A stretch of 64,000 nt of DNA from Alphaproteobacteria bacterium (GTDB lineage: Bacteria; Pseudomonadota; Alphaproteobacteria; Rs-D84): contig JAFVUD010000005.1 in the NCBI GenBank assembly GCA_017502865.1, positions 208,007-272,006 of the forward strand. Direction: 5' to 3'. Positions 4,517 to 64,000 of this stretch are shown one piece after another. The position numbers and the translations under genes were made by a program. The notes under the pieces are model-generated. The model was not told where the DNA came from. It worked only from the letters and a program-made list of their open reading frames with translations, and did not search any database. Each line of letters begins with the position of its first letter. Within the stretch, counting starts at the first letter, position 1.

Positions 4517-4540
4517 AAACGCCCCGATTGGGGCATTTTT
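4516..4540. terminator. bidirectional intrinsic terminator between the kinase gene and the envC-like gene
   Basis: AAAAACGCCCC-GATT-GGGGCATTTTT sits between convergent genes and overlaps the stop of the minus-strand gene. Confidence 0.75.
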
Positions 4541-6820: not shown

Positions 6821-6896
6821 AATTTTATTTCCCTTATCAGGAAAAATGATAACACGGATTTAGCCCCCATGCAACCATGGGACAAAAATATTTATT

Positions 6897-7871
6897 CTAC
6901 ATTTTATAAATTCTCAGGAACGATGTCTCGCTGGTCCCGGTTGAGCCCGAACCACCATCCCCACCATCGGCATAAAATGCCGAGTTAGACGTTCCATACA
7001 CACCGCCGCCGCCGCCACCGCCGCCATATGATATTGCAACCTGGCCACCACACGAAAACGACACATTTGCCCCACCGACACCACCACTGGCCGTATTTAA
7101 CGCAGTACATTTATATGTAGCACACGAACTTACATCGCCACCATTACCACCACCAACATCACTGCCATCGGTACCAACATTCATATACATTGCGTCATCT
7201 GGGAAAGTCCCCTTATACTGCCACCCGGTTCCGCCCAAATCACTTGGGGCGCCACCACCACCGCCACCAACACCATATGTTTCAGTACCATTGATTGTGT
7301 ACCCACGATATGCATTGACATTACCACTTAAATCCGAACGTCCACCCGACCCGTTACCAATCGCTGTCGCCGTTCTAGAATACGCACGATTTATCACATT
7401 ATTGTTCACAGGAATAGTACATGTATTACCTTCGCCCCCATCGGCACGCCATGCACGATTACCCACCACCAACAGGCTATCTACACCCGATGCACCACCA
7501 CCGAATGTACCGTATCGTCCACTGGAAACATTCACGCCACCTGGATTTCCATCACCACCACGCAACGCATATGCCGTTGTTGGTTCCGACAGTGAAAACA
7601 GTGCCGACACAATTGATGTTTCGGATTGTGCCACATAGTCAACACAGTATTCATTTGCCACACCAACACCCCCACGCAACTCTGCACGATAACACCCCGG
7701 TTCCAGCACAATTTCATTACATGTATTAAAATTCGTCACTTCAAAGACCAGTTCTTCTGTTCCCGACATAACACACGACCCCTGTGGCACTTCATTAGCA
7801 GCCATGTACACGTCCCCACTGGGCCCCGTGATATACAACGCTTGTGCTAAAAATACCATCGGCAAAAACAT
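6897..7871 (-). CDS. glycine-rich repeat protein (paralog 1)
   Basis: GCYRAELRGGVGV...AYALRGGDGNPGG...GGGASGVDSLLVVGNR...GGANVSFSCGGQVAISYGGGGGGGG...GGSGSTGTSETSFLRIYKM. It lies in tandem with, and is collinear to, the next gene. Confidence 0.7.
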   Translation of the reverse strand: MFLPMVFLAQALYITGPSGDVYMAANEVPQGSCVMSGTEELVFEVTNFNTCNEIVLEPGCYRAELRGGVGVANEYCVDYVAQSETSIVSALFSLSEPTTAYALRGGDGNPGGVNVSSGRYGTFGGGASGVDSLLVVGNRAWRADGGEGNTCTIPVNNNVINRAYSRTATAIGNGSGGRSDLSGNVNAYRGYTINGTETYGVGGGGGGAPSDLGGTGWQYKGTFPDDAMYMNVGTDGSDVGGGNGGDVSSCATYKCTALNTASGGVGGANVSFSCGGQVAISYGGGGGGGGVYGTSNSAFYADGGDGGSGSTGTSETSFLRIYKM

Positions 7872-22982: not shown

Positions 22983-25359
22983 TCCATTCAAAAAATTTTT
23001 CCACCGCCATCGGCGGCTGGTTGTCACATTGGGAATTATTTTTTGCATTTATTTAATAATACGCATATTTTTTACCCCACCCCTGCTCCACGACACACAC
23101 TTTTCCCGTGCATACTATGACCGCAACGGCCAATTATTACGCCTGACCCTGACGGCTGATGACAAATATCGCCTTTACACCCCACTTGACAAAATCAGTC
23201 CTGATTTAATTGCCGCCACCATTTTATACGAAGACAAATATTTTTATTATCACCCCGGCGTAAACCCTGTTTCATTATTTAACGCCACATTAAATTATTT
23301 TTCTGGTGCGCCCCACCCCGCCGGTGCATCAACAATCACAATGCAGACTGCACGATTAAAATATAATCTGGACACCAAAACACCTGTGGGGAAACTGATA
23401 CAAATTGCCGCAGCAATTTATATAGATTTATTCTATTCCAAATCCGAAATTATCGAAGCATACCTGAATCTGGCACCATACGGCGGCAATATCGAAGGCA
23501 TCGCCACCGCATCCCTGATATACTTTGACACACCTGCATCAGATTTGACAAAAATATCTGCCATATCATTATCCACCATTCCCCAAAATCCATCAAAACG
23601 TGGCCTGAACACCCCCAATGGCATAAACAACATATTTAATATGCGTCAAGATTTAGTTAAACGCTGGATTGGCCGCCACCCAACCGACACAGATTTAATC
23701 CAATTGGCGAAAATGCCATTGAATACCCGCCATATATCCGACCTGCCCTTTCTGGCGCCACATTTTACAGACCGCCTGATAAAATCCAGTCCAAATTATT
23801 GGCATGACATCGGTGCCCGCCCATCTGAAATCCGCACAACACTGGATTATTCATTACAGTCCGCCATGACCCACACATTACGTTCCCAGATTTCACGACG
23901 CCACGCATCCGGGGTCCAAAACGCCGCCGCAATACTAGTAAACTATAAAACCATGGAAACATTGGCATACATCGGTTCGACCGATTATCACAATGAAAAA
24001 ATATTCGGCCAAAACGATGGCGTATTCGCAAAACGCAGCCCGGCATCAACCCTGAAACCACTTATCTATGCAATGGCGTGCGATTACGGCCTGATACACC
24101 CAATGACATTACTAAAAGATGCCAAAATCAACTTTGGCGTGTACGCCCCCGAAAACGCAGACAATCGTTTTTACGGCCCTGTCTTGGCCCGTGATGCACT
24201 GACCCATTCCCGCAACATTCCCGCCATCGGCCTGATTCAAAAACTGGGGGCACGAAACTTTTATAACACGTTGAATAAATTCGAAATATCTGGCCTAAAA
24301 TCCCCCGACCATTATGGTATTTCAATTGCACTGGGCGGTGCCGAATTATCTATGTTCGAATTGGCAAACATATATGCAACCATGGCGAACCTGGGGCAAT
24401 TCAAGCGTATAAAATTTGACACATCCACCCCAGACGAAACAATTGACCATATCTTATCTGCCGAAGCTTTCTTTCTAACCCTGGACATGCTGGCATCAAA
24501 CCCACCACCAAAAAACAACATACCATTTGCCACGGCCCAACCAACCCCAAAAATTCAGCACTATTGGAAAACCGGCACATCATCTTCGTACCGTGATGCA
24601 TGGACGGCGGGCATATTTGGCGACTATGTGTTAATTGTATGGGTCGGCAACTTTGACGGCACCCCAAACAACGTTTTCAGTGGTGCCCGCACCGCCGCCC
24701 CAATTTATTTTGCATTGGCCGACACAGTAATAGATTACTTTTCCAACACCGCCACACCCGTACATAACAATGATTTTTTATCCCCCGATATGAATATTGC
24801 CCAACTGGATATGTGTGATACGGTCGGCGGCATTGCAAATGCCCAGTGCCCAAAAACGATAAAATCTTACTTTATCCCCGGCGTATCCCCAATTGACACA
24901 ACCAGCATTTACCGCACCATTCCAATTGACAATGCAACCGGCCTGCGGGCATGCACACGTGATCCAAACACCACCCACATGGAAACATTCGAATTCTGGG
25001 ATGCCGAATTTCTGGATATGTTTGCATCGGCCGGCATAACCCGCAACACCCCACCACCATTTATGCCCAATTGCAACCTGGACGAAATATCAAACGCATC
25101 CAGCGCCCCAATAATCACCCAGCCAATCGCAGATACTAAAACCGTAATAACAAACGATGCCACCGCCACCCCCATTGCGTACCAGGCCATATCCACCAAC
25201 CGCACAGACAAAATCTATTGGTTTCTAAACAGCGATATGATTGGCACCACCATATCCGGCCAGATATTTACCCACCCAACCCCGATGGGCGACCACACAT
25301 TACGCATTGCAACCGAAAGTGGCACCGGCACATCCATAAACTTTACCGTCACAAAATAA
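22966..25359 (+). CDS. pbpC: penicillin-binding protein 1C (bifunctional transglycosylase/transpeptidase)
   Basis: GT51 motif EDKYFYYHPGVNP. Transpeptidase motifs STLK (SPASTLKP), SRN and KTGTS. ATG 22966 overlaps the A2M 3' end by 17 nt; the track start at 22876 is over-extended. Confidence 0.92.
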   Translation: MPNLTSPFKKFFHRHRRLVVTLGIIFCIYLIIRIFFTPPLLHDTHFSRAYYDRNGQLLRLTLTADDKYRLYTPLDKISPDLIAATILYEDKYFYYHPGVNPVSLFNATLNYFSGAPHPAGASTITMQTARLKYNLDTKTPVGKLIQIAAAIYIDLFYSKSEIIEAYLNLAPYGGNIEGIATASLIYFDTPASDLTKISAISLSTIPQNPSKRGLNTPNGINNIFNMRQDLVKRWIGRHPTDTDLIQLAKMPLNTRHISDLPFLAPHFTDRLIKSSPNYWHDIGARPSEIRTTLDYSLQSAMTHTLRSQISRRHASGVQNAAAILVNYKTMETLAYIGSTDYHNEKIFGQNDGVFAKRSPASTLKPLIYAMACDYGLIHPMTLLKDAKINFGVYAPENADNRFYGPVLARDALTHSRNIPAIGLIQKLGARNFYNTLNKFEISGLKSPDHYGISIALGGAELSMFELANIYATMANLGQFKRIKFDTSTPDETIDHILSAEAFFLTLDMLASNPPPKNNIPFATAQPTPKIQHYWKTGTSSSYRDAWTAGIFGDYVLIVWVGNFDGTPNNVFSGARTAAPIYFALADTVIDYFSNTATPVHNNDFLSPDMNIAQLDMCDTVGGIANAQCPKTIKSYFIPGVSPIDTTSIYRTIPIDNATGLRACTRDPNTTHMETFEFWDAEFLDMFASAGITRNTPPPFMPNCNLDEISNASSAPIITQPIADTKTVITNDATATPIAYQAISTNRTDKIYWFLNSDMIGTTISGQIFTHPTPMGDHTLRIATESGTGTSINFTVTK

Positions 25360-25369
25360 AGAAAAACTT

Positions 25370-25454
25370 TGGTGCGACCAGGGGGAATCGAACCCCCAAG
25401 GATTTCTCCACAGCATCCTTAGTGCTGCGCGTCTACCAGTTCCGCCATGATCGC
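25370..25454 (-). tRNA. tRNA-Leu, anticodon AAG (type II, long variable arm)
   Basis: Reverse complement folds as GCGATCA-TG-GCGG-AACTGGTAG-ACGC-G-CAGCA-CTAAGGA-TGCTG-TGGAGAAATCCTT-GGGGG-TTCGATT-CCCCC-TGGTCGC-ACCA. The 5-bp anticodon stem is perfect, with loop C32 T33 A34 A35 G36 G37 A38. The anticodon is at 25418-25420. Confidence 0.9.
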
Positions 25455-25563
25455 AAATCGCAGCCAAAATAAATTTTTCCTAATTCTTGCAAGAACCTGT
25501 TTTTTTTTCAACCATTTTATGATACAATATCGCTTGATAGGAAAAAGGCAAAGGAATTCCAAA

Positions 25564-27063
25564 ATGAAAAAAATATCGAAAATTCTGTTAAATTGTTCAA
25601 TTTTTGCAATGCTGCCTGTGTTTGCAAATGCCGCCGGCACGTATTACAACAGTGGCCTGTATCAATCACCACAAACAACACGTTACAGCCGCCAAACATA
25701 TTCCCAGACCCAACGTTCTGGTGGAATTTCTGCCTATAATCAAAACAGATACGGGACCAGTGGATATACCGCATATGCCAACAATCAAAACCGCAATACC
25801 ACCCAAAATGCCCAGCAACGTGCCCCCCAGAAAAAGGCACCAAACGCAACCCAAACTGGTTTTTCATTGGATGCCGGCATTTCCCACCAAATGGGCAGTT
25901 GGCAATTTGAAATGGCGAACGCTGGTTCAATTCTGCGTTGGGACGATTTGAATTGGAATGTATTTGATGCAAATGGTAAGTATGTATTTAACGCAGGCAA
26001 CACCGCATTACAAATCGGTGCCGGTATTAAATATGGTATGCAATCCGGCGACGCCAGCATGATTGACGATGACATTACAAATAATAGAAACTTTCCTACA
26101 GAACTAATAAATATAGATACAGAAGAAATCATTGGTACAAGATATGGTGCTATATTATCTACGGGAACCGCATCCGATGGCAGTATGTTTGGATACAACA
26201 TCGAATTTGGATTAACCGATTTCTTTAAGTGGGGCAACGCACGCATTACACCCATTATCGGTTGGCGCAGCCTGTCCTATGAAACCGAAACCAGCAAGAA
26301 TTACGGTCTTGGCATGGACTACGTTGATAATGCCAATGGCTGTATAACCCTAGAAGACGGCTCTGTCCAATGCGATCCTTTATTGTTATTATATGTCATG
26401 AACCCTGCTGGCACTTACGACGAGGTCATATTATTACAACGTGACGAGTACGATAACATCGTAATGCCAGACGGTTCCGATGGAAACTACCTAGAACCAG
26501 AAGGTTCATACTATTTCTATCAACCTGGGGTCAGCCACTCTTACGAAGTTGAATGGGCGGGGCCATACCTGGCATTGGATATGTCATATTTAATCAACCA
26601 ATACAACCAAATCAGCGGTCGTATCGAATTGGGTCTGCCATCATACAGCGTAACCGCCAATCAACCAGGTAGATATGAACTTCAACATCCAAAATCTGTC
26701 GAAGATGAAGGCGGCATTGGCGATGCATTCCACTTTGGCTTGGGTGCCAATTGGTCAACCGCCATCACAGACAAGGTTGCATTATCAATCGGTTTGACAT
26801 ATGATTACTACACCGTCAGCGATGCCACCGCAAAAACATATGTAAACTCAGGTTATTATACATCGGCATATGACCAAATGCTGGCTGACTTAAAAGGAGC
26901 GGGCTATACAGAAGAACAAATAAACAGCATCCCACAAGTTATTGACTTGAAAGACTATATCGATTTAATGTCTGCCCAGGGCTGGACCTATACCGATGAA
27001 AAAGAAATTGAATCTGTGTTCAAATCTATGGGTATTCGTGTTGGCATAAACGCACGATTCTAA
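25564..27063 (+). CDS. outer-membrane beta-barrel protein with Q/N/T-rich N-terminal region; possibly omptin-like
   Basis: ATG 25564 gives MKKISKILLNCSIFAMLPVFANA. The C-terminus ...GIRVGINARF carries the OMP signature. Segments SILRWDDLNW...IGAGIKYGMQSGDASMIDDDI and EVEWAGPYLALDMSY resemble omptin blocks as I recall them. Confidence 0.6.
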   Translation: MKKISKILLNCSIFAMLPVFANAAGTYYNSGLYQSPQTTRYSRQTYSQTQRSGGISAYNQNRYGTSGYTAYANNQNRNTTQNAQQRAPQKKAPNATQTGFSLDAGISHQMGSWQFEMANAGSILRWDDLNWNVFDANGKYVFNAGNTALQIGAGIKYGMQSGDASMIDDDITNNRNFPTELINIDTEEIIGTRYGAILSTGTASDGSMFGYNIEFGLTDFFKWGNARITPIIGWRSLSYETETSKNYGLGMDYVDNANGCITLEDGSVQCDPLLLLYVMNPAGTYDEVILLQRDEYDNIVMPDGSDGNYLEPEGSYYFYQPGVSHSYEVEWAGPYLALDMSYLINQYNQISGRIELGLPSYSVTANQPGRYELQHPKSVEDEGGIGDAFHFGLGANWSTAITDKVALSIGLTYDYYTVSDATAKTYVNSGYYTSAYDQMLADLKGAGYTEEQINSIPQVIDLKDYIDLMSAQGWTYTDEKEIESVFKSMGIRVGINARF

Positions 27064-27698: not shown

Positions 27699-27782
27699 CC
27701 CCATAAATCTGGGAATATAATCTTGACATTTTTTTGTTTTGCGATACTGTATCGCCGAACACAAAATCACAGGGAGAAAGTT

Positions 27783-28649
27783 TTGAAAAAATCATCATTA
27801 TTACTGCTGTGCGCATTATTACCAACCACATCATTCGCAGATGAAAGTTTGACATTATCAATTCGCCGCATTGGTCTGGAATTATCTAAGACCCAGGTTC
27901 GTCACGCGGACCAGTACCAGGATTCACCAATATCGGCCTTGAACGCAGATAACCAAGATTTTATCAAGGGTGTATTTGATACCGCACTGGAATATAAACA
28001 CGGCCGCCTGCAATGGGACAACAGCCTGTTTATGGAATACGGCGAAACAACATTGAAACCATATGACGAACCCGAAACCGTCAGTGAAAATGCAGACGAC
28101 ATTTTGTTGTCCAGTAATTTAGAATACGGTTGCTGGGAAACATCTGGATTTAAATTCGGTCCAACCGTCCGTGCCGCATACGACACAGAATTTGTTGCAT
28201 CCGACGATGCCCCACGCCAGAACGTTGTGCGTGCGAACGCCGGTCTTTCACTGTTCGATAACGCCGTTATCAAAAGTTTATATTTAACCGGTGTGTATGA
28301 ATACGATTTCACATACTCGGACGAACAGGTATCCAAACTGGCGGCTGAATTGGGCTGGCGCCTGGAATACGAGGTTCGCGATGGTGTAAAATTCTCGTCC
28401 AATGGGTATTATCGTGAATATCTAAGTTATTCCCAGTATGTCCCAACCGACCTGGAACGCGATTTAAGTGCCGTTATCCGCATGGACACAAATCTGTGGG
28501 GCGATATGACAATGGGCCCATATGCCCAGTACCGCCGTGCCAAGGCCCGTGGTGCCGATGTCTATGCCAGCAACTTTATAATCGGCATATCATTTAATTA
28601 CATCACAAAATTCGGTCTGATTGACAATAAATCAACCACAGCCGAATAA
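27783..28649 (+). CDS. putative outer-membrane beta-barrel protein
   Basis: TTG 27783 behind an AGGGAG SD gives (M)KKSSLLLLCALLPTTSFA. Alternating beta-strand pattern throughout. The track start at 27723 coincides with a TTGACA -35 box. Confidence 0.55.
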   Translation: MKKSSLLLLCALLPTTSFADESLTLSIRRIGLELSKTQVRHADQYQDSPISALNADNQDFIKGVFDTALEYKHGRLQWDNSLFMEYGETTLKPYDEPETVSENADDILLSSNLEYGCWETSGFKFGPTVRAAYDTEFVASDDAPRQNVVRANAGLSLFDNAVIKSLYLTGVYEYDFTYSDEQVSKLAAELGWRLEYEVRDGVKFSSNGYYREYLSYSQYVPTDLERDLSAVIRMDTNLWGDMTMGPYAQYRRAKARGADVYASNFIIGISFNYITKFGLIDNKSTTAE

Positions 28650-28748: not shown

Positions 28749-31700
28749 ATGAAAGGGATTTTTCTATTTTTATCATTATTGGTTGCACCGCTGGGCTTTC
28801 TGCACAGTGCGGCGGCTGATGATGCAGCCGATATTGCCCGTGCTGCAACCCGCCGTGGTACAACCAATACAGTGACAAACACCCGCAAAAAAACTGAAAA
28901 TTCACCCCTGAAAAATTCACACAGCACAAACACTGTTTCACGTTCTACAAACGTCACACCACAAACAAATAATTCACTGCGTGAACGAAATGTTGGCAAC
29001 CGTTCTGGCAACGTGATATCTGGCACAGACCGCAGCACATCAACAGACACCAAAAAGCCCAGCGTAACCGCACGCAGTGGCACAAACATTGCCCCACGTG
29101 CAACCACTGCACGCACCGCCACACCGGCAAAACAAACCATTCGTACACAATCACAAACATCCATGCGTGCAACACCACGTACCAACAACCGTGGCACCAT
29201 TGCCCGTGCCGCAACCGAAGCAGCCACCGCCGCACGTGAAAAAATTATGTCTGCGAAATACACAGATTGTCGTACAGTTTATTATGATTGCATGGACGAA
29301 TTCTGTGCCAACAAAGACAGCCTGCTGAAACGCTGTGCATGTTCGGCCCGCACGAATGAATTTACCGGTGTTCAAAAACAATTAACCCAGGCCGAAGAAA
29401 AATTATTGGATTTTGGTGAACGCTTGCTAACCGTCAACCTAGAAGCCGAAGATGCCACCGCCATGTTCAACGCAACAGCCGGCGAATTGGCATTTCAAAA
29501 GCCAGACACCACAACATCTAAAAAAATCTTGGATGAAATTGCCGAAAAACTAAACACAAAAATCGACAATTCCACATTTGACAGAACACTTTCACCAATA
29601 TCTTTGTCATTAAACGAAGATGCCGCCTGGGACAGTGTTGATTCCCTGCAGGGGGCTTCAACAACACTAAAATCTGGCACCGAATTATATGCAGCCGCCC
29701 TGCCGATATGTCGTGAAATGGCATTGGAAATCTGCACCCCAGATGAACTGGACATAATCGAAAGCGGTTATCAAATGGCAATCGAACAAGATTGCAACAC
29801 CGTTGCCAAATCATACGTCAACCAAACCGATGCCGCACGTGAAAAAATCCGTGAATCCAGCGCATTGCTTGACATGGCCCGTCTGGACATTTACCAGAAA
29901 CGCAATTCCGACGACATTTTAACATGTAAAACAAAAATGCTGGACATGTTAACCAATACATCTGTATGTGGCGAAAATTTGGGCAAATGCCTGGACACAA
30001 CGGGCCAGTATATCGACCCATCAACGGGTGAAGCATTCTTGACCATGAATCTAGGGAATTTGGCACATTTAATCACACGTCCAACCGGGAACCAGACATG
30101 GACAAACGCCCCCGGCAATGCAAAATTTGTATCATACCTGTATTCGAAAAAACAATACCTGGAACCTGCTATGGAAAATTGCCAGGATGTTGCCGATTAC
30201 GTATGGGACAACTTTATCGAAGACGCCCTGGCCCAGATTAAATTGGCCCAGGACGCCAAACTAGAAGAAGTCCGCCAAAGCTGCACAACCCTGACCACCC
30301 AGTGTTTATCAGACACCGCAAAATCATTGGCCGACTTTGATGCCCGTGCTTTATCTACATTCGGTGTGGCGGCCGATAAAACCGTCAACGCCATGTGTGC
30401 CGACGTTCAAAACGCATGTACCGCCCTGTTACAGGAAACCGGTGGTGGCGATGGCGACTGGGTTGGTGGTATGACAGAAATTGCAACCGACACCACATAC
30501 GAAACACTGCGACAAACCTGTCGCGAGGTTGGACGTGCCTGCATTATCCAGGCCTGCACATCAATTTCTGGCAACTTTGGTCTGTGTGAAAACATCGACA
30601 CATCCATTAACCGCAAGGCTATTATTAACCGCACATCCTGCTGGAACGAGGTATTATCCTGTGTTAAATCCGCTGGCACAGATTCCATTGACAATATCAT
30701 AACCCTGTTGGGCAACCGCGGCAGCATCAAACTGAACGACGGTGCAATTGACACCAAGTCATTCTATTCTAACCTGTATGGATCTTTACCAGAACCATAT
30801 ATTTCAGACATCGGCAATCGAGGCGACTGTGAAAAAACAGAAAACAAAAACTGTGTGTACGACATCTGCTACAGCGATTGCAACACCCAACCAACATCAT
30901 TTGAATGTCGTTCTTGCCGTATCGCAGAACAAATCTGGGGCAATTGCGAGGTTGCACCAACAACCACCCTGTCAACCAAAGAGAAAGATGACAAAGGCAA
31001 CCTAAAAATGTATCACAACCGTATCAAGGCCCCCGTTGGCAAAGATGCAACTACATTGCTGTATTGGTTTGCAGTAAACACCGGCACCAATTTGCGTGAC
31101 GATGCATGCCGTGATACAACCTGTGGACCAGGCTTTATCCCATACGAAGTCAACGGCATCATCACCTGTCAGCCATCTAACAGTGTCGACGATTCCGGTG
31201 CCTTTTGCCCCAAGAATGCAGATGGTGACATGCCAACATATTCTGTTAATGGTGTTAATCTGTGCTGTCCCCTGGGAACAGATTCATATTCCAATTGCTG
31301 CAACGGTACCCCGGATGATATCGATGACACCAATGCCACCACAAACCTGTGCTATATGAGTAACAAAAACAACACCTATACATTAACCTTTGATATTGCC
31401 AACACCCAAAATTACTATTTCGATGGTACGCACTATTTAATATGTTTTGGTGGCAGCGTTAACACCGATAAAGAATACTTCGAATGCAATGGCAATTGGG
31501 TGATTGTATCAGCAACAAATGGTCATTATTACACACCAAAATTAACCAATAGTAACGATGAAACAATTATAAACACCCGCCTGATTACCGAAACATTCCA
31601 TGCTGCCAGTACGACAGACAGCAACGGTATTGAACAACCTGGAATCCAATACACATACCAGAAATCCACAGACACAACCAACGGCACCTGGAAAGATGCC

Positions 31701-31757
31701 AACGGGAACACTGTCGACGAACCTGACAATTGGATGGTAACAATCAACGCAAACTGA
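28749..31757 (+). CDS. giant Cys-rich secreted protein, CMDxFC family paralog 1 (1002 aa)
   Basis: Signal peptide MKGIFLFLSLLVAPLGFLHSAAA, then a basic T/R/N/S-rich low-complexity spacer of about 150 aa. The signature CRTVYYDCMDEFCANKDSLLKRCACS follows. Dozens of Cys residues are spaced through helical segments. Confidence 0.75.
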   Translation: MKGIFLFLSLLVAPLGFLHSAAADDAADIARAATRRGTTNTVTNTRKKTENSPLKNSHSTNTVSRSTNVTPQTNNSLRERNVGNRSGNVISGTDRSTSTDTKKPSVTARSGTNIAPRATTARTATPAKQTIRTQSQTSMRATPRTNNRGTIARAATEAATAAREKIMSAKYTDCRTVYYDCMDEFCANKDSLLKRCACSARTNEFTGVQKQLTQAEEKLLDFGERLLTVNLEAEDATAMFNATAGELAFQKPDTTTSKKILDEIAEKLNTKIDNSTFDRTLSPISLSLNEDAAWDSVDSLQGASTTLKSGTELYAAALPICREMALEICTPDELDIIESGYQMAIEQDCNTVAKSYVNQTDAAREKIRESSALLDMARLDIYQKRNSDDILTCKTKMLDMLTNTSVCGENLGKCLDTTGQYIDPSTGEAFLTMNLGNLAHLITRPTGNQTWTNAPGNAKFVSYLYSKKQYLEPAMENCQDVADYVWDNFIEDALAQIKLAQDAKLEEVRQSCTTLTTQCLSDTAKSLADFDARALSTFGVAADKTVNAMCADVQNACTALLQETGGGDGDWVGGMTEIATDTTYETLRQTCREVGRACIIQACTSISGNFGLCENIDTSINRKAIINRTSCWNEVLSCVKSAGTDSIDNIITLLGNRGSIKLNDGAIDTKSFYSNLYGSLPEPYISDIGNRGDCEKTENKNCVYDICYSDCNTQPTSFECRSCRIAEQIWGNCEVAPTTTLSTKEKDDKGNLKMYHNRIKAPVGKDATTLLYWFAVNTGTNLRDDACRDTTCGPGFIPYEVNGIITCQPSNSVDDSGAFCPKNADGDMPTYSVNGVNLCCPLGTDSYSNCCNGTPDDIDDTNATTNLCYMSNKNNTYTLTFDIANTQNYYFDGTHYLICFGGSVNTDKEYFECNGNWVIVSATNGHYYTPKLTNSNDETIINTRLITETFHAASTTDSNGIEQPGIQYTYQKSTDTTNGTWKDANGNTVDEPDNWMVTINAN

Positions 31758-31776: not shown

Positions 31777-32919
31777 ATGAAAAAAATATTTATTGCATCT
31801 TTACTGCTGTTATCCATTTCTGGCAAATATTCATTCGCCGCTGTAAATCCTGTAACATGTACAAACACCGTATCAAGTGATGCATGCAACACCATAGAAG
31901 GCTGCGGCTGGAAAGCAACCGATGAAGCCGGCGGCGGGAAATGTACCCCCTGTACTCAAGGGTGGTATGGTGCCGGCTGCACAGAACAATGTCCCGAATC
32001 TCACCCAACCACAATTGGCAATGGTGCACAAGTAAAAACCGAATGTGTTTTTATCTGCCAAGAAGAAGAAATTACCGACAATAACGGTAACCCGATGGGA
32101 AAAAAAACCCCAAAACAAGAACATATACCGTTCATTAATTCCGACGAAACCCCATCGTGCGAATATACAATCAGTTGTTATGGCATAGCCCCCCCAGATC
32201 ACACACACCCATGCACAACATATCACCTGGGCCAGGACGAACAAACATGTGAACCCGATTATAAAATAGCTTCTTATAACAATAACCGGCCCGGCACCGG
32301 CGGCTATGGTGACCAGTGTAACAAGTATTTTATGGTATATGAAAATAACCGCTACACACCCATATCATGCACAGAATGCGTTGCTGGCAACCACCTAAAC
32401 CCAACAGCAATCACCGACTACTGTGGCATTCCTACTGGCAACAAATGTGATGCAAACTCTATTTCATGCGACCCACTGGGGAATCCCGGCAGTTTAACCA
32501 ACTGTGAATATATAGAAAATACAAAAGAAAACAAATACACATGGGATGCCGACAAACAATCGTACGATTACAGTGCATGTACAAAAAAATGCAAAGTTAA
32601 AGAAGGCCGAAACACAAACGAATATATATTCAGTTATAATGGTAATGAATGGGTCAAAGGCGATTCCACAGGGAGCACAGAATGCGATACTGGATCTTGT
32701 CTGATGCCAGGCGAAACAGCGTGTGATGCCGCTGACTATGGATATTATGCAGTCCAAAAACAAAACAACTGTAAACCATGTCCAGGCGGAACAACCACTG
32801 ATAAAAAAGGTGCAACATCTGTAGACGACTGCGTAATAACAAACGCAACCAAATTCTGTGACAAAAAGGGCTGTTTTACCCTGCCAATCAATGACGATGT
32901 CACAATAGACTATTTCTAG
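31777..32919 (+). CDS. Cys-rich secreted protein with eukaryote-like CxxCPxG repeats
   Basis: Signal peptide MKKIFIASLLLLSISGKYSFA. Motifs CTPCTQGWYGAGCTEQCP and CKPCPGGTTTDKKGATSVDDC (ephrin-receptor-like/GCC2_GCC3-type pattern). Ends in ...TIDYF, 19 nt downstream of the previous gene. Confidence 0.7.
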   Translation: MKKIFIASLLLLSISGKYSFAAVNPVTCTNTVSSDACNTIEGCGWKATDEAGGGKCTPCTQGWYGAGCTEQCPESHPTTIGNGAQVKTECVFICQEEEITDNNGNPMGKKTPKQEHIPFINSDETPSCEYTISCYGIAPPDHTHPCTTYHLGQDEQTCEPDYKIASYNNNRPGTGGYGDQCNKYFMVYENNRYTPISCTECVAGNHLNPTAITDYCGIPTGNKCDANSISCDPLGNPGSLTNCEYIENTKENKYTWDADKQSYDYSACTKKCKVKEGRNTNEYIFSYNGNEWVKGDSTGSTECDTGSCLMPGETACDAADYGYYAVQKQNNCKPCPGGTTTDKKGATSVDDCVITNATKFCDKKGCFTLPINDDVTIDYF

Positions 32920-53802: not shown

Positions 53803-54624
53803 TTATTTCAAAGCTTCCAAAATCTGATCTGCTGGAACTGCACCTGGGAATGCCTGTTCGTTCACGATCAAGAATGGTGTACCAGAAATATCGAATTCGC
53901 GTGCCATGTCACGAACGTTTTTCATTTCACGTGCGACAACTTCGCCCTTCATGTCTTTTTTCAGTGTTTCCACATCCAGACCAATTTCTTTTGCGAATTC
54001 CAGGACTTTCTTTTCAACTTTTTCACCCAATTTAGCCTGGTCTTTCATGTCATCACGTGAATAGTAATCACGTGTCATCAACATATCAACCAATGCGGAT
54101 GCTTTTTCTGGGTTCTGCAATTTTGCAGCGATTGTTGCCTTGGCTGGTGCATCAGACAATGGGCCATGGATAGAAAAGTTTTTGATAACAACACGAACAT
54201 CATCACGTTCGGCCATTACACGATCCAATTCACCATGTACACGACGGCAGTATGGGCATGAAAAGTCTGTCCAAACATAGATTGTGTTTTTGGCTTCTGC
54301 ATTACCCATAACTGGGGCATCTGCAATCAATGTGTCTGCGTTTGCACGAACATGTTTACGGATTTTTTTGTTCTTTTCCGCATTCTGCTGTTCCTGCATG
54401 CTTTCAACCATTTCCTGCAAGATTGCTGGGTTAACAGATGTCAAATAATATGGTGTGTACAAACGGCATACCGCACCCATCATCAACAAAACAGCAACCA
54501 ATTTGATTACTTTTTTGCCAATCATTGCACCTGATGTTGGCTTTTTAGCATCGACCTTGACCAGTTTACCACCGAACATGAACAATGCAATCGCCAGTAC
54601 TAATACTAAGATTGTCCAAATCAT
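53803..54624 (-). CDS. membrane-anchored DsbA-family thiol:disulfide oxidoreductase
   Basis: N-terminal TM helices and a thioredoxin fold with the active site DFSCPYCRR (CPYC). Confidence 0.85.
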   Translation of the reverse strand: MIWTILVLVLAIALFMFGGKLVKVDAKKPTSGAMIGKKVIKLVAVLLMMGAVCRLYTPYYLTSVNPAILQEMVESMQEQQNAEKNKKIRKHVRANADTLIADAPVMGNAEAKNTIYVWTDFSCPYCRRVHGELDRVMAERDDVRVVIKNFSIHGPLSDAPAKATIAAKLQNPEKASALVDMLMTRDYYSRDDMKDQAKLGEKVEKKVLEFAKEIGLDVETLKKDMKGEVVAREMKNVRDMAREFDISGTPFLIVNEQAFPGAVPADQILEALK

Positions 54625-58473: not shown

Positions 58474-58499
58474 AAAAAACGCCCATTCGGGCGTTTTTT
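58472..58499. terminator. bidirectional intrinsic terminator (rne / mscS)
   Basis: AAAAAAAACGCCC-ATTC-GGGCGTTTTTT, overlapping the mscS stop. Confidence 0.8.
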
Positions 58500-59343
58500 A
58501 TTTAACCAATCGCACATCCATCTGCGGGAATGGGAACGAAACCTTCTTCTTGGGCAATGTTTCATAAATCTGTTCAATCAATGCATTCTTGCTGCCATAT
58601 ACATCTGAATATTTCGACCAATACCGAACCGTCAATTCAACACCACTGTCCCCCAAATTGCTGATAAACACTTCTGGGGCCGGTGTCTGCATAACCCGCA
58701 CATCTTTGGCCAAAATATCCAAAATTACCTTGCGTGCAATATCTACACTATCTCCATATGAAATACTAAGTTGCAAATCACTGCGTCGAATTTCACCATC
58801 TGATAAATTTACAATTTCACCATTTGCCAATGCACCATTTGGCAAAAACACAACCTGATTATCAAAAGTATGTAATTCTGTTGTAAAAATCATAATCTTT
58901 TTGATAACACCTGTTTTTCCTGTGGCTGTTTCAATCGTATCCCCCACCTTGAACGGCTTAAACAGCAATATTACAATACCACCTGCAAAATTCTGTAATG
59001 TCCCCGACAGTGCCATCCCCACAGCCAAAGACGCAGCCCCTAAAACTGCAACAATCGATGTCATTTGAACACCAACTGTGGTCAAACAGATTACAACCAC
59101 AAACACTTTGAATAAAATATTCAAAAACGATAGCAAGAAAGACCTTAACGACGCTTCTAAATTACGTCTTTCCATGCCCCGTTTTATCACATTCATAAAA
59201 CGTTTTGTTAACCACAATCCAATCGACAAAATCGCCAAGGCAGCCAACAATTTTAATCCAAACGATACCGCCTTTTCCCCCAGTGTCGACAAAATCGCTT
59301 CTAAACTGCTAACTTCTATATCTAATTTTTCTGCAACATTCAT
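58498..59343 (-). CDS. mscS: small-conductance mechanosensitive channel
   Basis: SIVAVLGAASLAVGMALSGTLQNFAGGIVILLFKPFKVGDTIE (pore helix TM3 and beta domain). Confidence 0.9.
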   Translation of the reverse strand: MNVAEKLDIEVSSLEAILSTLGEKAVSFGLKLLAALAILSIGLWLTKRFMNVIKRGMERRNLEASLRSFLLSFLNILFKVFVVVICLTTVGVQMTSIVAVLGAASLAVGMALSGTLQNFAGGIVILLFKPFKVGDTIETATGKTGVIKKIMIFTTELHTFDNQVVFLPNGALANGEIVNLSDGEIRRSDLQLSISYGDSVDIARKVILDILAKDVRVMQTPAPEVFISNLGDSGVELTVRYWSKYSDVYGSKNALIEQIYETLPKKKVSFPFPQMDVRLVK

Positions 59344-59390
59344 ATTATTTTCCTTTTACTTAAACGGGCCCATCTGGGCCCGCATTTATC

Positions 59391-61928
59391 TTACAGTGGA
59401 ATATCTTCACATTTTTCGACCGGATCAGACGATGTACATTCCATTGTCTTGCTGGCCCCAATGCCCAAGAATCCACTTTTCTGTTTTACTTTACAACTTT
59501 GTGTAATTGTGCTGGTACAGAAATGGCAATTACGTGTTTCGCGGTTAAACATAGACCACACTTCACGGGTCGAGCCTCCACCTTCAAACTTGAACTTGTT
59601 CGAACCAAAGGATCCTGCCCCCAGATGAACACCTGCACTACCAAAGTCACCCGACATTTTACCAAATTCTGTCATAGACTTTCCACCAGCCATCAATTTA
59701 TCTGATGTCAGCCCAGCACCAACATCATACGAAATTGCATACGGTGGTGCCAATGGTGTATCAACTTCGGTATTTGTTGAACCCGACAATTCACCATTTG
59801 TTGCCGCCAATTTATGACACATATACTGTGCGATATCCGCAGATGCATCCTTGGATGCTTCAAACACAGCATCATTAAATTTCTTGTTATAATTATTCTG
59901 GGCCTGACGCAGGGCCGAAACCGCAATCTGCATCTTAACCTGGTTCAACAGATTTGGGAAACGTGCCTTGGTCTTTTGACCACGTTTACCAGTAATCTGG
60001 GACAAATCACGACCATTGACACAGAACTGAATTTCTGGGTCCTGTTCAATCATTTCAATTGTACGATTGATTGTACCAGTAATATTATTCAATTCTTCTT
60101 CGATTGTCGCAATAATCGAATCCTTGTTCGGGACATCTTTGTTCGTTTCACGAATCTTGGCCAAATATCCCTGAATTCCCAATTCACCCGGTCCCAGTTT
60201 GTATTCTTCACCGGCGGCATCAACATCCATTGTACGACCCGACGCATCACCCATTTTAATAGACCCAAATGAAATCATACCCGACACACGATAGATTGTG
60301 CCATCTTTCTGGGAACGCAACGACCCGGCCCCAATTGTATCATCGGCGGCAAATCTGTTGCAGTCTGTGGTACTGCCACAAACTTCTTCCATTTTGGCAT
60401 TGACCAGATTCTGGCACTGTTCCATGGCGGCATTATCAATATTCAAATACAGCCCCATCAGCATTGAATCCAAATCATCAATCGAGAAATTTGGGTTATT
60501 TGCCTTGCACACTACCAAACTGTCAACTGGGCAAATTTCATGGATATAGTCATAATCCATACCAATACAGTTTTCAAAGTTTTCACCACAACGTGTATCT
60601 GCGGTAAAGCAATCTTTTACTTCTTGGGTACAGGCATCGACACGCATCGCCGCCAATTTATCAACAACATACCCCCAAATCAGTGGTTCCATGCGTTCAC
60701 AGCGGTCAATTTCCACTTTACAGAAACTGCGTGCCATATCTGGACGTGATAAACACGCATCCATTGTATCAACACCCTTGCCGGCAATATCGTCTTTACA
60801 TGCTGTCTGGATACAGTCTGAAATATCTGTCAAACATGATTGACGCATCTTGGATTCTGCGTTTGCTTCGGCCATTTTGATTGTTGGGGCGGCTTCTCGC
60901 AAGAAATCTGGCCACACCATGTCACGCACCGCCATACATTGGTTCAAAACCTTTTCACAGATATTACGTTTTGATTCCAATATTTCCATTGTCGATGCCG
61001 TGATATCATATTTATCAACGGTTTTAACCTTGGTCCCTGCAGTGCTTGTGGCGGCCTGGTTCTGCATATTTTCAGACGCAATAATTGAAACACAGTTTCC
61101 CCAATCTTCGCCACAGGCATCTTCGGTCTGCATACACTTTTTAAATTCAACCATACATGTTCCACGGTCAAATTTATTGGCTTCGTTAAAACTGTCTTTT
61201 AATGCAGAACGCACTTCGGTTTCTGCATCCAACATAGCCACTTCTGCTTCACCAGATTTGGTTTCAATCAAATTTTCATACGCTTTGCAGTCTGACAAAA
61301 TTTGACGTGAATACATCTGCTTTAACAGATTCAAATCTTTTTCACACTTATCTGGAATCTGGGCCAAACAAACTTCCTGGGCGGCACTGTGCAATATATC
61401 GCCTGTCATATCTGCAATATCTGTCACAGCCCCTTCTTCATCATCTTCGTCATAGACATTTGAATCAAACAACGCCATTAAATCTTGACGTTTTTGTGTT
61501 TTTTCTTCATCTTCGGTATTTACATCAACCTTGATTACATTGCCATCTTTGTCGTATTTACGTTCCCCACCAAAGATAATATCTGCATCTGCCCCGGCCC
61601 TAACCTTTTCGACTTCAATTGTTTTGATACGTTCTGCCTCGACCAGGGTTTCTTTGATTTTTTCAAATTCTTGGTCCAGTGCAATGGATTTATCACTGCA
61701 CCCACAACTGCCACCGTTGGCATTATCTGTGATACAGAACTGGTCCATACATCCATAATATAAATCATAACATTCCTGGTCATACAGACCGGTTGTTTCT
61801 GCCTTGGTACGAACCTTGGTCCCCTTTTGCACTGCCGATTGTTTGGTTGTACGTGCCGCTGCTGCGAACGCATCAACATTATACGCACACAGACACAGCA
61901 CCGAACATAACGCAACCCATTTTTTCAT
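59391..61928 (-). CDS. giant Cys-rich secreted protein, CMDxFC family paralog 2 (845 aa)
   Basis: Signal peptide MKKWVALCSVLCLCAYNVDAFA. Signature CYDLYYGCMDQFCITDNANGGSCGCS. Collinear Cys blocks with paralogs 1 and 3. C-terminal box RNCHFC...CEDIPL. Confidence 0.75.
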   Translation of the reverse strand: MKKWVALCSVLCLCAYNVDAFAAAARTTKQSAVQKGTKVRTKAETTGLYDQECYDLYYGCMDQFCITDNANGGSCGCSDKSIALDQEFEKIKETLVEAERIKTIEVEKVRAGADADIIFGGERKYDKDGNVIKVDVNTEDEEKTQKRQDLMALFDSNVYDEDDEEGAVTDIADMTGDILHSAAQEVCLAQIPDKCEKDLNLLKQMYSRQILSDCKAYENLIETKSGEAEVAMLDAETEVRSALKDSFNEANKFDRGTCMVEFKKCMQTEDACGEDWGNCVSIIASENMQNQAATSTAGTKVKTVDKYDITASTMEILESKRNICEKVLNQCMAVRDMVWPDFLREAAPTIKMAEANAESKMRQSCLTDISDCIQTACKDDIAGKGVDTMDACLSRPDMARSFCKVEIDRCERMEPLIWGYVVDKLAAMRVDACTQEVKDCFTADTRCGENFENCIGMDYDYIHEICPVDSLVVCKANNPNFSIDDLDSMLMGLYLNIDNAAMEQCQNLVNAKMEEVCGSTTDCNRFAADDTIGAGSLRSQKDGTIYRVSGMISFGSIKMGDASGRTMDVDAAGEEYKLGPGELGIQGYLAKIRETNKDVPNKDSIIATIEEELNNITGTINRTIEMIEQDPEIQFCVNGRDLSQITGKRGQKTKARFPNLLNQVKMQIAVSALRQAQNNYNKKFNDAVFEASKDASADIAQYMCHKLAATNGELSGSTNTEVDTPLAPPYAISYDVGAGLTSDKLMAGGKSMTEFGKMSGDFGSAGVHLGAGSFGSNKFKFEGGGSTREVWSMFNRETRNCHFCTSTITQSCKVKQKSGFLGIGASKTMECTSSDPVEKCEDIPL

Positions 61929-61956
61929 AAGAAACCTCTCTCCGTTAAATATGAAC

Positions 61957-64000
61957 TTACATATTTATATCTTCGCAACTTTCAATTTCCTGGCAGAATT
62001 CTTCCTTGCCTGATGCCATCATACCCATGATACCACCACCAATCATACCAACAACACCACCAATTGCAGTTCCCCAACCCGGTGTCACCATTGTACCAGC
62101 CGATGCCCCCGCTGATAATCCACCTGCGGCACCCTTGGCAAAACCTGCACCCTTGGATTCACCACCTGTTTCGCAAACCTGTTGCATACGGCACACATGG
62201 CAATTACGCAAATCTGGTTCAAAATGCACACTGCGGATATAACTATAGTTCTTATCAGATTCATCCGGTTTTTCTACTTTATATGTGTTATAGCAGTTCT
62301 GTTTTGCCTGTTCCAAATCCTGTTTACGTGACAGTTCGGCAATTTTCATTTCCAACGCACGCAATGCACGATTTTCCGCACCAATTTCTGCAATCATCTT
62401 TGCAGAATTGAATACGCTGTCCCCCAGACTTTTGCGACCTGCTGGCTTTTTACTGTCCATACATGCCGCAACCGTGATATCTTTTTCAAACTGCTTAAAG
62501 AAATCTGCCACTGCTGTCTTGGAATTATTACGCACTGTTGCACGCAATGCGACCAAGCCTTCTTCGGTGTCTGGGATATCCAGCAAAGATTCCACCGTGG
62601 AATCAGATGGCAAACATGCCATATCTGTACCACAAACCTTGCCCAGTTGTTCGCCAAAATAGTTTACACAGCCCTGCAACAATTGATAATCCATCTGCAA
62701 CATAACAGCCTGGACAATAATATCAAACTGTGTTTCATTTTTGCATGACGGATACATAGATTGTGGACACAGTTCTACAATCTCAGATGTCTTTTTGCCG
62801 ACACATTCTGGTGCATTAAAGTTTTCACCACATTTATCACGCAAACATTTATCAATATCATTTTGACAGAATTGTGTACGCAAGAATCCCAACTTATCAT
62901 TCACAACTGTCTTAATACCTGGAATCATGGCTTCACATTCATCAATAATTGGGCAAACACCCGCCGCAACATTAACGTCTGTCAAACACGCAGAATTAGT
63001 CGATGTTGAACACCCATCTTCTAAACAGGTCTGAATCCGTGCCAAACATGTCTGGCGACGATATTTGTCTGCATATTGTGCTGCATCAACCAAAATTGCC
63101 TGCGATTCCGCTTCCCAGTCGGTCAACACATATGAACGCACCGCCATACACTGGTCCAGAACATTTTCACATGCATTTGCACGACGGCCCAACAAATCCG
63201 CATCCAAACAGTTTTCAAAGTTTGCACCACATCCACCCTTGTCTGCGATACAGGCTTTATACGCCAACAAACATTCACCACGATTATATTTGTTGGTTGT
63301 ATCCAGCATTTCTAAACGTGCCTTACGCACAGCCGCTTCGGCCGTACGTTTATTCGCCTGGGCATTAATCTTTTGATCTGACAAATATGATTCAAACGAT
63401 TTACAATCTGCAATCACCTGACGCAGATACAGCATTTCTTCCATATCCGCCTTGGAACTGCACGAATCCAATTCCGACGCACAGAATTCAGATGCCATCG
63501 CATACAAACCATCACCAATATCTGCGTCTGCACCCAACGATTCGTCATCATCAACCGAACCATTCAACCATTCTGAAAAACTTAACCCCGACGCACGCGA
63601 ACTCTTCTTGGCCGCTTCACTTTCGCCAAAGACCAACTTTGCCTTGGCCCCTAACTGTTCACGTTCAACACCTTCGGTATATAATTTATCTGCTTCTTCC
63701 TGGATTTTTTGAATTTCCAAAATCAAATCTTTGGACTGATTGATATTAGACGAACAGGCACAACGATAGCCTTCGGATTCATCCAGCAGACAGAATTCAT
63801 CCATACATGCACGATACGCCTCGCGACAATCTTTCTTTTCGACCGGTGTATCATCCGCACCTGAATCACCATTACCAGAATCATCACCTGAATTTCCAGA
63901 ATCATTACCTGAATTATCATTACCACCCGACGGCTTTTGCGAAACATTCACATCCGCAGACGGCGTATTAACCACCTTGTTCACGGCGGCATTAACACTC
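61957..64000 (-). CDS. giant Cys-rich protein, CMDxFC family paralog 3; 5' end probably beyond the right edge
   Basis: The frame is open to position 64000 (track start 63984 is a GTG, and no signal peptide has appeared yet). Signature CREAYRACMDEFCLLDESEGYRCACS. C-terminal RNCHVC...glycine-zipper hydrophobic segment...CEDINM. Confidence 0.72.
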   Translation of the reverse strand, partial: SVNAAVNKVVNTPSADVNVSQKPSGGNDNSGNDSGNSGDDSGNGDSGADDTPVEKKDCREAYRACMDEFCLLDESEGYRCACSSNINQSKDLILEIQKIQEEADKLYTEGVEREQLGAKAKLVFGESEAAKKSSRASGLSFSEWLNGSVDDDESLGADADIGDGLYAMASEFCASELDSCSSKADMEEMLYLRQVIADCKSFESYLSDQKINAQANKRTAEAAVRKARLEMLDTTNKYNRGECLLAYKACIADKGGCGANFENCLDADLLGRRANACENVLDQCMAVRSYVLTDWEAESQAILVDAAQYADKYRRQTCLARIQTCLEDGCSTSTNSACLTDVNVAAGVCPIIDECEAMIPGIKTVVNDKLGFLRTQFCQNDIDKCLRDKCGENFNAPECVGKKTSEIVELCPQSMYPSCKNETQFDIIVQAVMLQMDYQLLQGCVNYFGEQLGKVCGTDMACLPSDSTVESLLDIPDTEEGLVALRATVRNNSKTAVADFFKQFEKDITVAACMDSKKPAGRKSLGDSVFNSAKMIAEIGAENRALRALEMKIAELSRKQDLEQAKQNCYNTYKVEKPDESDKNYSYIRSVHFEPDLRNCHVCRMQQVCETGGESKGAGFAKGAAGGLSAGASAGTMVTPGWGTAIGGVVGMIGGGIMGMMASGKEEFCQEIESCEDINM

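Follow-up and report, generated by a model that had tools for sequence, protein, structure and literature searches.

Small lipoproteins of the glycine-zipper two-transmembrane (2TM) kind (SlyB/Pcp, YfgH, OsmB, YiaD and the Rickettsia 17-kDa antigen; PF05433, PF13488 and PF13441) are envelope proteins of diderm bacteria in which two small-residue GxxxG helices are joined by a short turn; they have a lipobox, with the zipper located after the lipid anchor. Gly-zipper composition is also found in Caulobacter CdzC/CdzD, in the class IIc bacteriocins and in the type 7 secretion system (T7SS) toxin LXG-T2, which are small or modular proteins exported by type 1 secretion (T1SS), by T7SS or by means of a leader peptide, and which are accompanied by immunity genes. 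Chlamydial OmcA and OmcB are Cys-rich envelope proteins exported by the Sec pathway in a partner-dependent bacterium of reduced genome that keeps DsbA, and their cross-linked complex is DsbA-dependent (in part from PMC6752827). Here we describe a gene pair of a gut bacterium with a tiny genome, Candidatus Enterousia, in a 64,000-nt stretch of contig JAFVUD010000005.1 (assembly GCA_017502865.1, forward strand), hereafter the window. The minus strand of positions 59391–64000 holds two open reading frames (ORFs), encoding Par3 and Par2. These proteins are members of the CMDxFC family, an uncharacterised family of ~1000 clusters that is unannotated in the libraries searched. We found that Par3 and Par2 form a conserved tandem and share a C-terminal cysteine box, with a glycine-zipper segment in Par3 and a short basic and aromatic/hydrophobic tip in Par2 at the same position of the box. 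Our tentative reading is that Par3 may be embedded in a membrane by its zipper hairpin and that Par2 may be its peripheral partner, the two acting together in the cell envelope.

Par3 and the SlyB-type lipoproteins have in common the two GxxxG arms with a short turn, and the sequence matches between them are weak. Unlike those lipoproteins, Par3 is a protein of 723 aa with a signal of the signal-peptidase-I type, its zipper is inserted in an apparently disulfide-closed loop of a C-terminal beta-sheet on a large Cys-rich helical body, and it does not reach the Pfam cut-off. It also has weak matches to Bacteriocin_IIc, but in contrast to the zipper toxins it is large, conserved and Sec-exported, and the Par3–Par2 locus contains no immunity gene or secretion system. 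Par2 and Par3 are likewise Sec-exported, Cys-rich envelope proteins of a partner-dependent bacterium with a reduced genome and a DsbA-like protein, and a Protochlamydia Pom-like porin is encoded near Par1, a third paralog, which parallels the chlamydial envelope complex. However, they show no similarity in sequence or fold to OmcA/OmcB, their bodies are predicted to be alpha-helical, and their cysteine covariation points to intramolecular disulfides. Anchoring by a glycine-zipper hairpin is already known, as are Sec export and Dsb oxidation in combination with it. The libraries and papers searched contain no description of the protein family, of its fold or of its exchangeable loop with the proposed disulfide closure.

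The Par3–Par2 tandem and its protein family

Par2 is encoded at 59391..61928 (minus strand) from an ATG start and has 845 aa, with the signal peptide MKKWVALCSVLCLCAYNVDAFA. Par3 lies upstream at 61957..64000 (minus strand) and is truncated at its 5' end by the window edge, so that residues 44–723 fall inside the window; its stop codon occupies 61957–61959, and the frame remains open to base 64000 over 680 codons without a stop. Identical Par2 is encoded on 9 public contigs, and the complete Par3 of 723 aa was read from contigs encoding identical Par2; the first 43 residues, outside the window, begin MNLRILATLLCVVPSLGFA/AERTSE and include a typical Sec signal peptide. The Par3–Par2 spacer (61929..61956, minus strand; 28 nt, GTTCATATTTAACGGAGAGAGGTTTCTT) contains a ribosome-binding site, GGAGAGAGG, 7 bases ahead of the Par2 ATG. 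The first-pass annotation of this DNA, made from the sequence alone, had placed the two genes 28 nt apart on the minus strand upstream of mscS, with the Par3 frame open at the window edge. These coordinates were reproduced, and every peptide string given there was recovered by translation at its exact position.

BLASTP aligned Par2 with Par3 over ~496 residues (28% identity, E = 3e-55), and both contain the N-terminal family motif C-x3-Y-x2-C-M-D-x-F-C-x9-C-x-C-S, located by translation and motif search as CREAYRACMDEFCLLDESEGYRCACS in Par3 (63751..63828, minus strand) and CYDLYYGCMDQFCITDNANGGSCGCS in Par2 (61695..61772, minus strand). The earlier designation of the two as paralogs was thus correct. 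The motif residues C, M, D, F and C are invariant in 89 aligned family members. Both proteins carry Sec-type signal peptides, and signal-peptide-like N-termini were present in 66 of 72 Par3 and 74 of 78 Par2 orthologues; each mature chain contains 36 cysteines, many of which probably form disulfides. A region of ~260 aa of Par2 has no counterpart in Par3. The window contains three CMDxFC ORFs, the third being Par1 (28749..31757, plus strand; 1002 aa, identified by motif search), and a fourth, Par4 (852 aa, with CMDQFC), is situated just past the right edge (4743–7301 of locus L002, minus strand). Par1 has a basic S/T/R-rich low-complexity linker and a different C-terminus, and Par4 a basic Thr/Ser/Arg-rich linker. 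In Par3 the linker is acidic and rich in Gly, Asp, Ser and Asn (63844..63933, minus strand; residues 66–95, by translation), and the acidic region of Par3 and the basic one of Par1 were both found as first described. This linker is the least conserved part of Par3 among orthologues (0.12–0.13 identity). A 21-nt tandem repeat of ~2.2 copies at 63865–63916 overlaps the linker and encodes its GNDSGNS-type sequence, which probably explains the variation in linker length among the Par3 orthologues (proteins of 705–753 aa).

A family profile built from both ortholog groups and Par1 was searched against 1.84 billion representatives and retrieved 989 clusters (50% identity) at E ≤ 1e-3, including 473 at E ≤ 1e-30, with the motif C[ML][DEN]x[FYW]C in 137 of the 150 best matches. 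The named members were all from metagenome-assembled genomes (MAGs) of Alphaproteobacteria, 'Rickettsiales' or Enterousia, save two apparently mis-binned records, and those of the distant clusters were 'Rickettsiales bacterium' MAGs. Par1 to Par3 matched no family in Pfam, NCBIfam or PADLOC at E ≤ 0.01, the best library match of Par4 was non-significant (E = 0.044), and no Pfam domain was detected in nine long distant family members. A sequence profile search of PDB gave nothing significant, and Foldseek searches with the Par3 and Par2 models gave nothing at E ≤ 0.001 in PDB (best E, 0.81 for Par3 and 1.7 for Par2) or BFVD (best E, 0.055), all TM-scores being below 0.4. Low-score matches to alpha-actinin/spectrin rods and to phage internal virion proteins were dismissed, as they reflect long helices only. 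No paper mentioning the CMDxFC protein family was found in a literature search.

For the species comparison, the best 80 GTDB species loci were used. They come from MAGs labelled Candidatus Enterousia, Alphaproteobacteria or 'Rickettsiales' (two of the records, labelled Bacteroides or Muribaculaceae, look mis-binned) and originate from ruminant, horse, chicken, human and termite guts, one being on a 958-kb chromosome. The first-pass annotation had proposed synteny as a check on whether the pair is a unit, and the pair proved to be a tight tandem: 70 of the 80 loci yielded both full ORFs, with the gene of the Gly-zipper type upstream of that of the short-loop type, and the same tandem was found in 55 metagenome-contig loci. 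The gap between the Par3 stop and the Par2 start had a median of 28 nt and was 14–78 nt in 61 of 63 species loci. By tblastn, all loci with sufficient upstream DNA read p234(-), Par4(-), infA(-), Par3(+), Par2(+). The tandem persists in a more divergent lineage with rearranged flanks: in a termite-gut MAG the orthologues of Par3 (P0258) and Par2 are 50% and 57% identical to the window copies and their genes are 18 nt apart, while the upstream neighbour is a Na/Ca exchanger gene and infA and a Par4-like gene lie 5 kb away. Co-transcription of Par3 and Par2 is very probable.

Median identity to the window copy was 71% for Par3, 65% for Par2 (80 orthologues, at 63–73% identity), 54% for Par4, 49% for p234 and 91% for InfA. 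Such moderate-to-high conservation suggests that these proteins have a structural role under constraint and are not diversifying rapidly. The p234 gene, which follows Par4 (4042–4746 of locus L002, minus strand), encodes a secreted Cys-rich protein of 234 aa with no library match; Par4 and p234 are oriented divergently to Par3 and separated from it by infA, and this arrangement is kept in nearly all of the 80 loci. Some Enterousia genomes contain an extra Par2-like paralog of ~1005 aa, ~33% identical to Par2, upstream of p234/Par4 (L010:63–3080 and L047:25–1974), indicating that the copy number of the family differs between species.

Downstream of the pair the arrangement is more variable. In the window, Par2 is followed by mscS (58498..59343, minus strand; four MscS Pfam domains), and just 3' of the Par2 stop is a GC-rich hairpin, CGGGCCC-AGAT-GGGCCCG (59365..59382, minus strand), which may be a terminator or attenuator before mscS, its minus-strand T-tract being weak. 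mscS directly follows Par2 in 33 of the 70 loci and is absent from 35. Its presence is polymorphic among contigs with 100% identical Par2 (the window versus L001, L003, L004 and L005), and in contigs without it a gene for RNase E/G directly follows Par2. Since it occurs next to Par2 in 33 of the 70 loci only and is missing from contigs encoding identical Par2, mscS was rejected as a functional partner and is best seen as a variable neighbour outside the Par3–Par2 unit.

The C-terminal box and its variable loop

Par2 and Par3 end in a common box, RxCHxC...C-loop-C...CEDIxM/L-COOH, and both conform to the general pattern C-x2-C-x(5-8)-C-loop-C-x(5-9)-C-[ED]-x-[IV]-x-hydrophobic-COOH. In Par3, the first half of the box, FEPDLRNCHVCRMQQVCETG (62164..62223, minus strand), contains cysteines C1 to C3 (C643, C646 and C652), and the second half, KEEFCQEIESCEDINM-COOH (61960..62007, minus strand), contains C4 and C5 (C712 and C718). 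Between the two halves is the glycine-zipper loop GAAGGLSAGASAGTMVTPGWGTAIGGVVGMIGGGIMGMMASG (62008..62133, minus strand). By translation, the Par2 box reads FNRETRNCHFCTSTITQSC-KVKQKSGFLGIGASKTME-CTSSDPVEKCEDIPL (59394..59549, minus strand), with the short loop tip GFLGIGAS (59451..59474, minus strand) at the position of the Par3 zipper. The box is retained in all orthologues retrieved from the GTDB species genomes. The 72 Par3-type boxes follow FEPxLRNCHVCRMQQVCExGG...GWGTAIGG...(E/D)FCQEIESCED(I/V)NM and the 78 Par2-type boxes RxCH(F/Y/V/I)CT...C-loop-C...CEDIxM. Alignment of the Par2 and Par3 C-terminal profiles by hhalign matched the first half of the box (P = 1.7e-5), and the second half, CEDIx[ML], is the literal C-terminus of both proteins; the shared box reported in the first-pass annotation is therefore real and beyond chance. 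Among the Par3 orthologues, the box blocks show ~0.9 identity, with 0.93 for the first half and near invariance of the second in the 72 sequences. A strict regular expression detected the box in ~37 of 150 family representatives, and it is absent from Par1 and Par4.

AlphaFold2 models were made from an 89-sequence alignment and had a predicted TM-score of 0.43 and 0.44, so that local structure alone was trusted. The models of Par3 and Par2 (mean predicted local distance difference test [pLDDT] 71.9 and 74.3) contain all-alpha cores and a C-terminal sheet, and in both they show a long, mostly alpha-helical body ending in a small beta-sheet, the C-box. In the Par3 model the strands are residues 628–637 and 642–655, which form a beta-hairpin, and 709–722 (mean pLDDT of its 10-residue blocks, 85 and 80), with the zipper between the last two. 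In the Par2 model they are residues 800–817, 826–833 and 837–844, with GFLGIGAS at the tip of a hairpin.

The combinations in which the box cysteines are lost suggest how they are paired. Of 21 divergent Gly-zipper C-termini, 11 had the pattern CCCCC, 5 had CxCCx (another 2 partially so) and 3 had CCxxC; a cysteine was never missing on its own. An alignment-based count of 47 short-loop representatives gave CCCCC in 23, CxCCx in 9 and CCxxC in 1, the remaining patterns being those of visibly misaligned hydrophobic-hairpin sequences. Because loss of cysteine 2 goes with loss of cysteine 5, and loss of 3 with loss of 4, we infer disulfides C2–C5 and C3–C4, which in Par3 predicts the map C646–C718 and C652–C712. 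The C2–C5 bond would tie the last strand to the sheet, and C3–C4 would close the variable loop between the second and last strands. Since C3 and C4 flank this loop, the disulfide would close it off as an insert whose two ends lie on one side, within an oxidising compartment.

The loop takes three forms among the 150 representatives: short and basic/aromatic, Gly-zipper-like, or strongly hydrophobic. The Gly/Ala-rich insert had been reported for Par3 only, as a glycine zipper, and its composition and register bear this out. Residues 666–707 of Par3 form a run of 42 residues with no charged residue, and such uncharged runs span 37–49 aa in Par3 orthologues, whereas the median run of Par2 orthologues is 13 aa. 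The segment comprises arm 1, AAGGLSAGASAGTMV, a T-P-G-W-G turn and arm 2, TAIGGVVGMIGGGIMGMMA; delimited as AGGLSAGASAGTM and GTAIGGVVGMIGGGIMGMMA with a P-G-W-G turn between them, the second arm is a perfect (GxxxG)4, so that Par3 has the two-arm, charge-free GxxxG hairpin of the glycine-zipper 2TM kind. The register G-x3-G-x3-G-x3-[GA]-x3-G after the GWG turn is present in 70 of 72 Par3 orthologues, and the glycine columns G48, G52, G56, G60 and G64 show little or no variation in relatives whose identity over the C-terminal 85 aa falls as low as 36%.

Short loops include KKGFLGIGAK, SRGFLGLWDSRG, KKPVFGKYY and RTMWGGGR. In Par2 orthologues the tip occurs in three versions, GFLGIG, SWFHN and GGNWFRK, each flanked by Lys/Arg, as in the Par2-type sequences KKSGFLGIG, SKSWFHN, GGNWFRK and KKGWFKD. 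The third form is exemplified by single Par2-like proteins of the metagenome loci L087 and L135, which are 31–35% identical to Par2 over ~790 residues and whose loops are long Ala/Val/Ile-rich hairpins (17-residue hydropathy 2.5–3.0) with a PVVGW or PIGT turn, ahead of ...C.....C.DIQM. The proposal that GFLGIGAS is a remnant fits with these hydrophobic hairpins at the same loop in distant single-copy Par2-like proteins and is compatible with Par2 having lost an anchor.

Many family members (P0241–P0390) end in E-x-C-x-[DE]-[IVL]-x-[MFYL]-COOH, which in the window corresponds to 61960–61980 and 59394–59414. The last strand, E-x-C-x-D-[IV]-x-[MF]-COOH, loosely resembles the beta-signal of outer-membrane proteins (polar-x-G-x-x-hydrophobic-x-aromatic) with Cys replacing Gly, the strand apparently being stapled by a disulfide (C2–C5); we regard this as an unproven lead. 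Other C-terminal signals and anchors were considered and rejected. A PEP-CTERM, GlyGly-CTERM or sortase-type signal does not fit a tail that is acidic rather than basic after the hydrophobic stretch, has a pair of conserved cysteines and forms a sheet strand in the model; a type 1 secretion signal does not fit proteins that both carry N-terminal Sec signals; and no lipobox ([LVI][ASTVI][GAS]C) for a lipoprotein anchor was found, the Par3 signal ending ...VVPSLGFA/AE and that of Par2 ...NVDAFA/AA.

Proposed membrane contact and joint action of Par3 and Par2

We propose that the disulfide-closed loop of the C-box may be the membrane-contact module of the family, which the hydrophobic hairpins at the homologous loop support. 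The zipper of Par3 would most likely be an antiparallel helical hairpin that enters the membrane from the oxidising (periplasmic) side, as do the SlyB-type 2TM hairpins, and it may self-associate. With its borderline hydropathy (see below), the zipper does not qualify as a classical stop-transfer helix; any membrane insertion would probably follow export and involve a hairpin, possibly as part of an oligomer. The Par2 loop, with its Lys/Arg-flanked aromatic/hydrophobic tip, looks like a site of peripheral membrane contact and would be fit for that only. The first-pass annotation had suggested one anchored subunit and one released or partner subunit; the anchored-plus-partner part of that proposal agrees with the co-conservation of the tandem and with the different loop types, but a released Par2 is doubtful, given the resemblance of its tip to a peripheral membrane-binding loop. 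Together, Par3 and Par2 would likely form an envelope assembly with a structural or cell-contact role, in a bacterium that has few transporters and depends on a partner. Taken as a whole, the reading of Par3 as membrane-embedded by its zipper hairpin and of Par2 as a peripheral partner acting with it in the envelope is the one we favour, at a little short of an even chance.

Several observations weigh against this reading, most of them concerning the zipper itself. The 19-residue Kyte-Doolittle hydropathy is 1.56 for the window Par3, with a median of 1.34 (range 1.09–1.75) in the orthologues, whereas the classical threshold for a transmembrane segment is 1.6; a crude Hessa sum gives ~ +3 kcal/mol; the first arm is short and rather polar; and AlphaFold2 draws two short helices with pLDDT < 50 over residues 667–703. 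The score of the window Par3 against Pfam Gly-zipper_Omp (PF13488) is 16.9–17.0 bits (E = 0.006), below the cut-off of 25 bits. Of the 21 divergent relatives, 6 match PF13488 at E ≤ 0.01 (best, 2.1e-6), 3 PF13441 and 1 PF05433; Rick_17kDa_Anti and YMGG are among the families hit, and there are weak matches to Bacteriocin_IIc. A profile of the zipper weakly matched SlyB (7ojf; E = 0.49) and a Legionella Dot/Icm OmpA-family protein (E = 0.021), and phmmer with the bare zipper gave no informative match in PDB. A hydropathy below the threshold in most orthologues, the low pLDDT and the sub-threshold Pfam score would be expected if Par3 were soluble in the periplasm and its Gly-rich segment were a loop that is flexible or associates with itself, as a protein–protein zipper or a linker, and a Sec signal without a recognisable outer-membrane targeting system would leave Par3 in the periplasm by default. 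We nevertheless consider such a loop unlikely, because an exact i,i+4 glycine register, the lack of charge over 37–49 positions and a Trp turn kept at 36–80% identity are unexpected of a disordered linker, and because the homologous loops of other family members are clearly hydrophobic. A very different role for the zipper, in which Par3 would be a pore former or contact-dependent effector oligomerising as a membrane channel in partner or target cells, with Par2 as its carrier or chaperone, draws on the finding that several toxins and bacteriocins form channels by means of their glycine zippers (Kim et al. 2005, as reported in a paper citing it; a T7SS glycine-zipper toxin is the subject of PMC12955049), on the weak Bacteriocin_IIc matches and on a host lineage predicted to be cell-dependent and to lack standard transporters. 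It appears very unlikely: Par3, with its near-invariant C-box, ranks with the better-conserved proteins of the locus, unlike fast-evolving effectors, the zipper is held in an apparently disulfide-closed loop of a 723-aa protein, and no immunity-like small gene, secretion-system genes or PADLOC/toxin domains were found nearby.

The other part of the favoured reading, that Par3 and Par2 act together, has to be weighed against the view that they are independently acting envelope or surface paralogs, which form no complex and are adjacent through tandem duplication in genomes that rarely rearrange. Adjacency in such small genomes is a weaker sign of functional coupling, and gene order around the pair is in general strongly conserved, with the unrelated infA included. 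There are, moreover, at least 4 family paralogs within ~70 kb, with differing C-termini; the two proteins are only 28% identical, with part of Par2 unmatched in Par3; and the lineages with the distant hydrophobic-hairpin type carry a single gene and not a pair. Independent action nevertheless seems somewhat unlikely to us, since the gap is held within narrow limits in nearly all species, the genes are 18 nt apart even where the flanks are rearranged and infA and the Par4-like gene are split off, and immediate neighbours such as mscS come and go. The adjacency of Par3 and Par2 through deep divergence and local rearrangement, together with their very probable co-transcription, suggests that they most likely act together, as the favoured reading has it.

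Genomic setting and the organism

A DsbA-like thiol-disulfide oxidoreductase is encoded in the window at 53803..54624 (minus strand; Pfam DSBA, E = 1.2e-19) and is, as context only, a plausible candidate oxidant for the 36-Cys proteins. In some strains, the interval between the dsbA-like gene and a TM2-domain gene contains a gene for a BspA/leucine-rich repeat (LRR)-like protein of 881–891 aa with ~25-residue repeats (..GLTGEIPENLFAGISGAPA..; L001:17719–20394, also in L003 and L004). The window has no such gene at ~53000–53800, where it holds tRNA-Leu(CAA) (53024–53108) and a GC-rich 30-nt tandem repeat (53153–53214). Par1 adjoins envelope genes, its neighbours being outer-membrane-type proteins: the Protochlamydia Pom-like porin at 25447–27063 and a DUF3078 protein at 27723–28649 precede it, and a 380-aa protein with an Ephrin_rec_like Cys-rich domain (31777–32919) comes directly after it. 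Further away, at 17295–25359, a gene for a bacterial alpha-2-macroglobulin (A2M; 1895 aa) lies directly upstream of one for a class A penicillin-binding protein (PBP) with a PBP1C-type C-terminal domain; we take these to be the known A2M-PbpC pair, here in a ~1-Mb genome.

Enterousia belongs to the order Rs-D84. Its genomes are < 1 Mb and encode no tricarboxylic acid cycle, no respiration and none of the standard sugar, amino-acid and peptide transporters, and it is predicted to be an obligate symbiont or parasite (PMC12306168); Rs-D84 has also been found in termite guts (PMC11257099). In such a bacterium the CMDxFC proteins might be the main envelope or cell-contact apparatus of Rs-D84, that is, disulfide-stapled helical rods bearing an exchangeable membrane-insertion loop that is a peripheral tip in some, a glycine zipper in others and a complete hydrophobic hairpin in yet others. 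A Par3–Par2 hetero-assembly would then use the zipper to oligomerise, giving a conduit or a device for attachment with which the cell holds on to other cells or draws metabolites from them. This extension is speculative, and we consider it quite unlikely in its full form.

What the pair itself predicts is narrower: a glycine-zipper hairpin that would act as a membrane anchor, and an anchored subunit that would be joined by a peripheral one. A disulfide-closed, swappable membrane loop would be an unusual way of attaching a glycine zipper to a protein. Candidatus Enterousia/Rs-D84 is widespread in human, livestock, bird and termite guts and is thought to live off other cells (PMC12306168). At least 4 large paralogs of one unannotated family are kept within ~70 kb of a ~1-Mb genome; their retention, together with the intact Par3–Par2 pair, marks out the CMDxFC proteins as prime candidates for this lineage's envelope or contact machinery.

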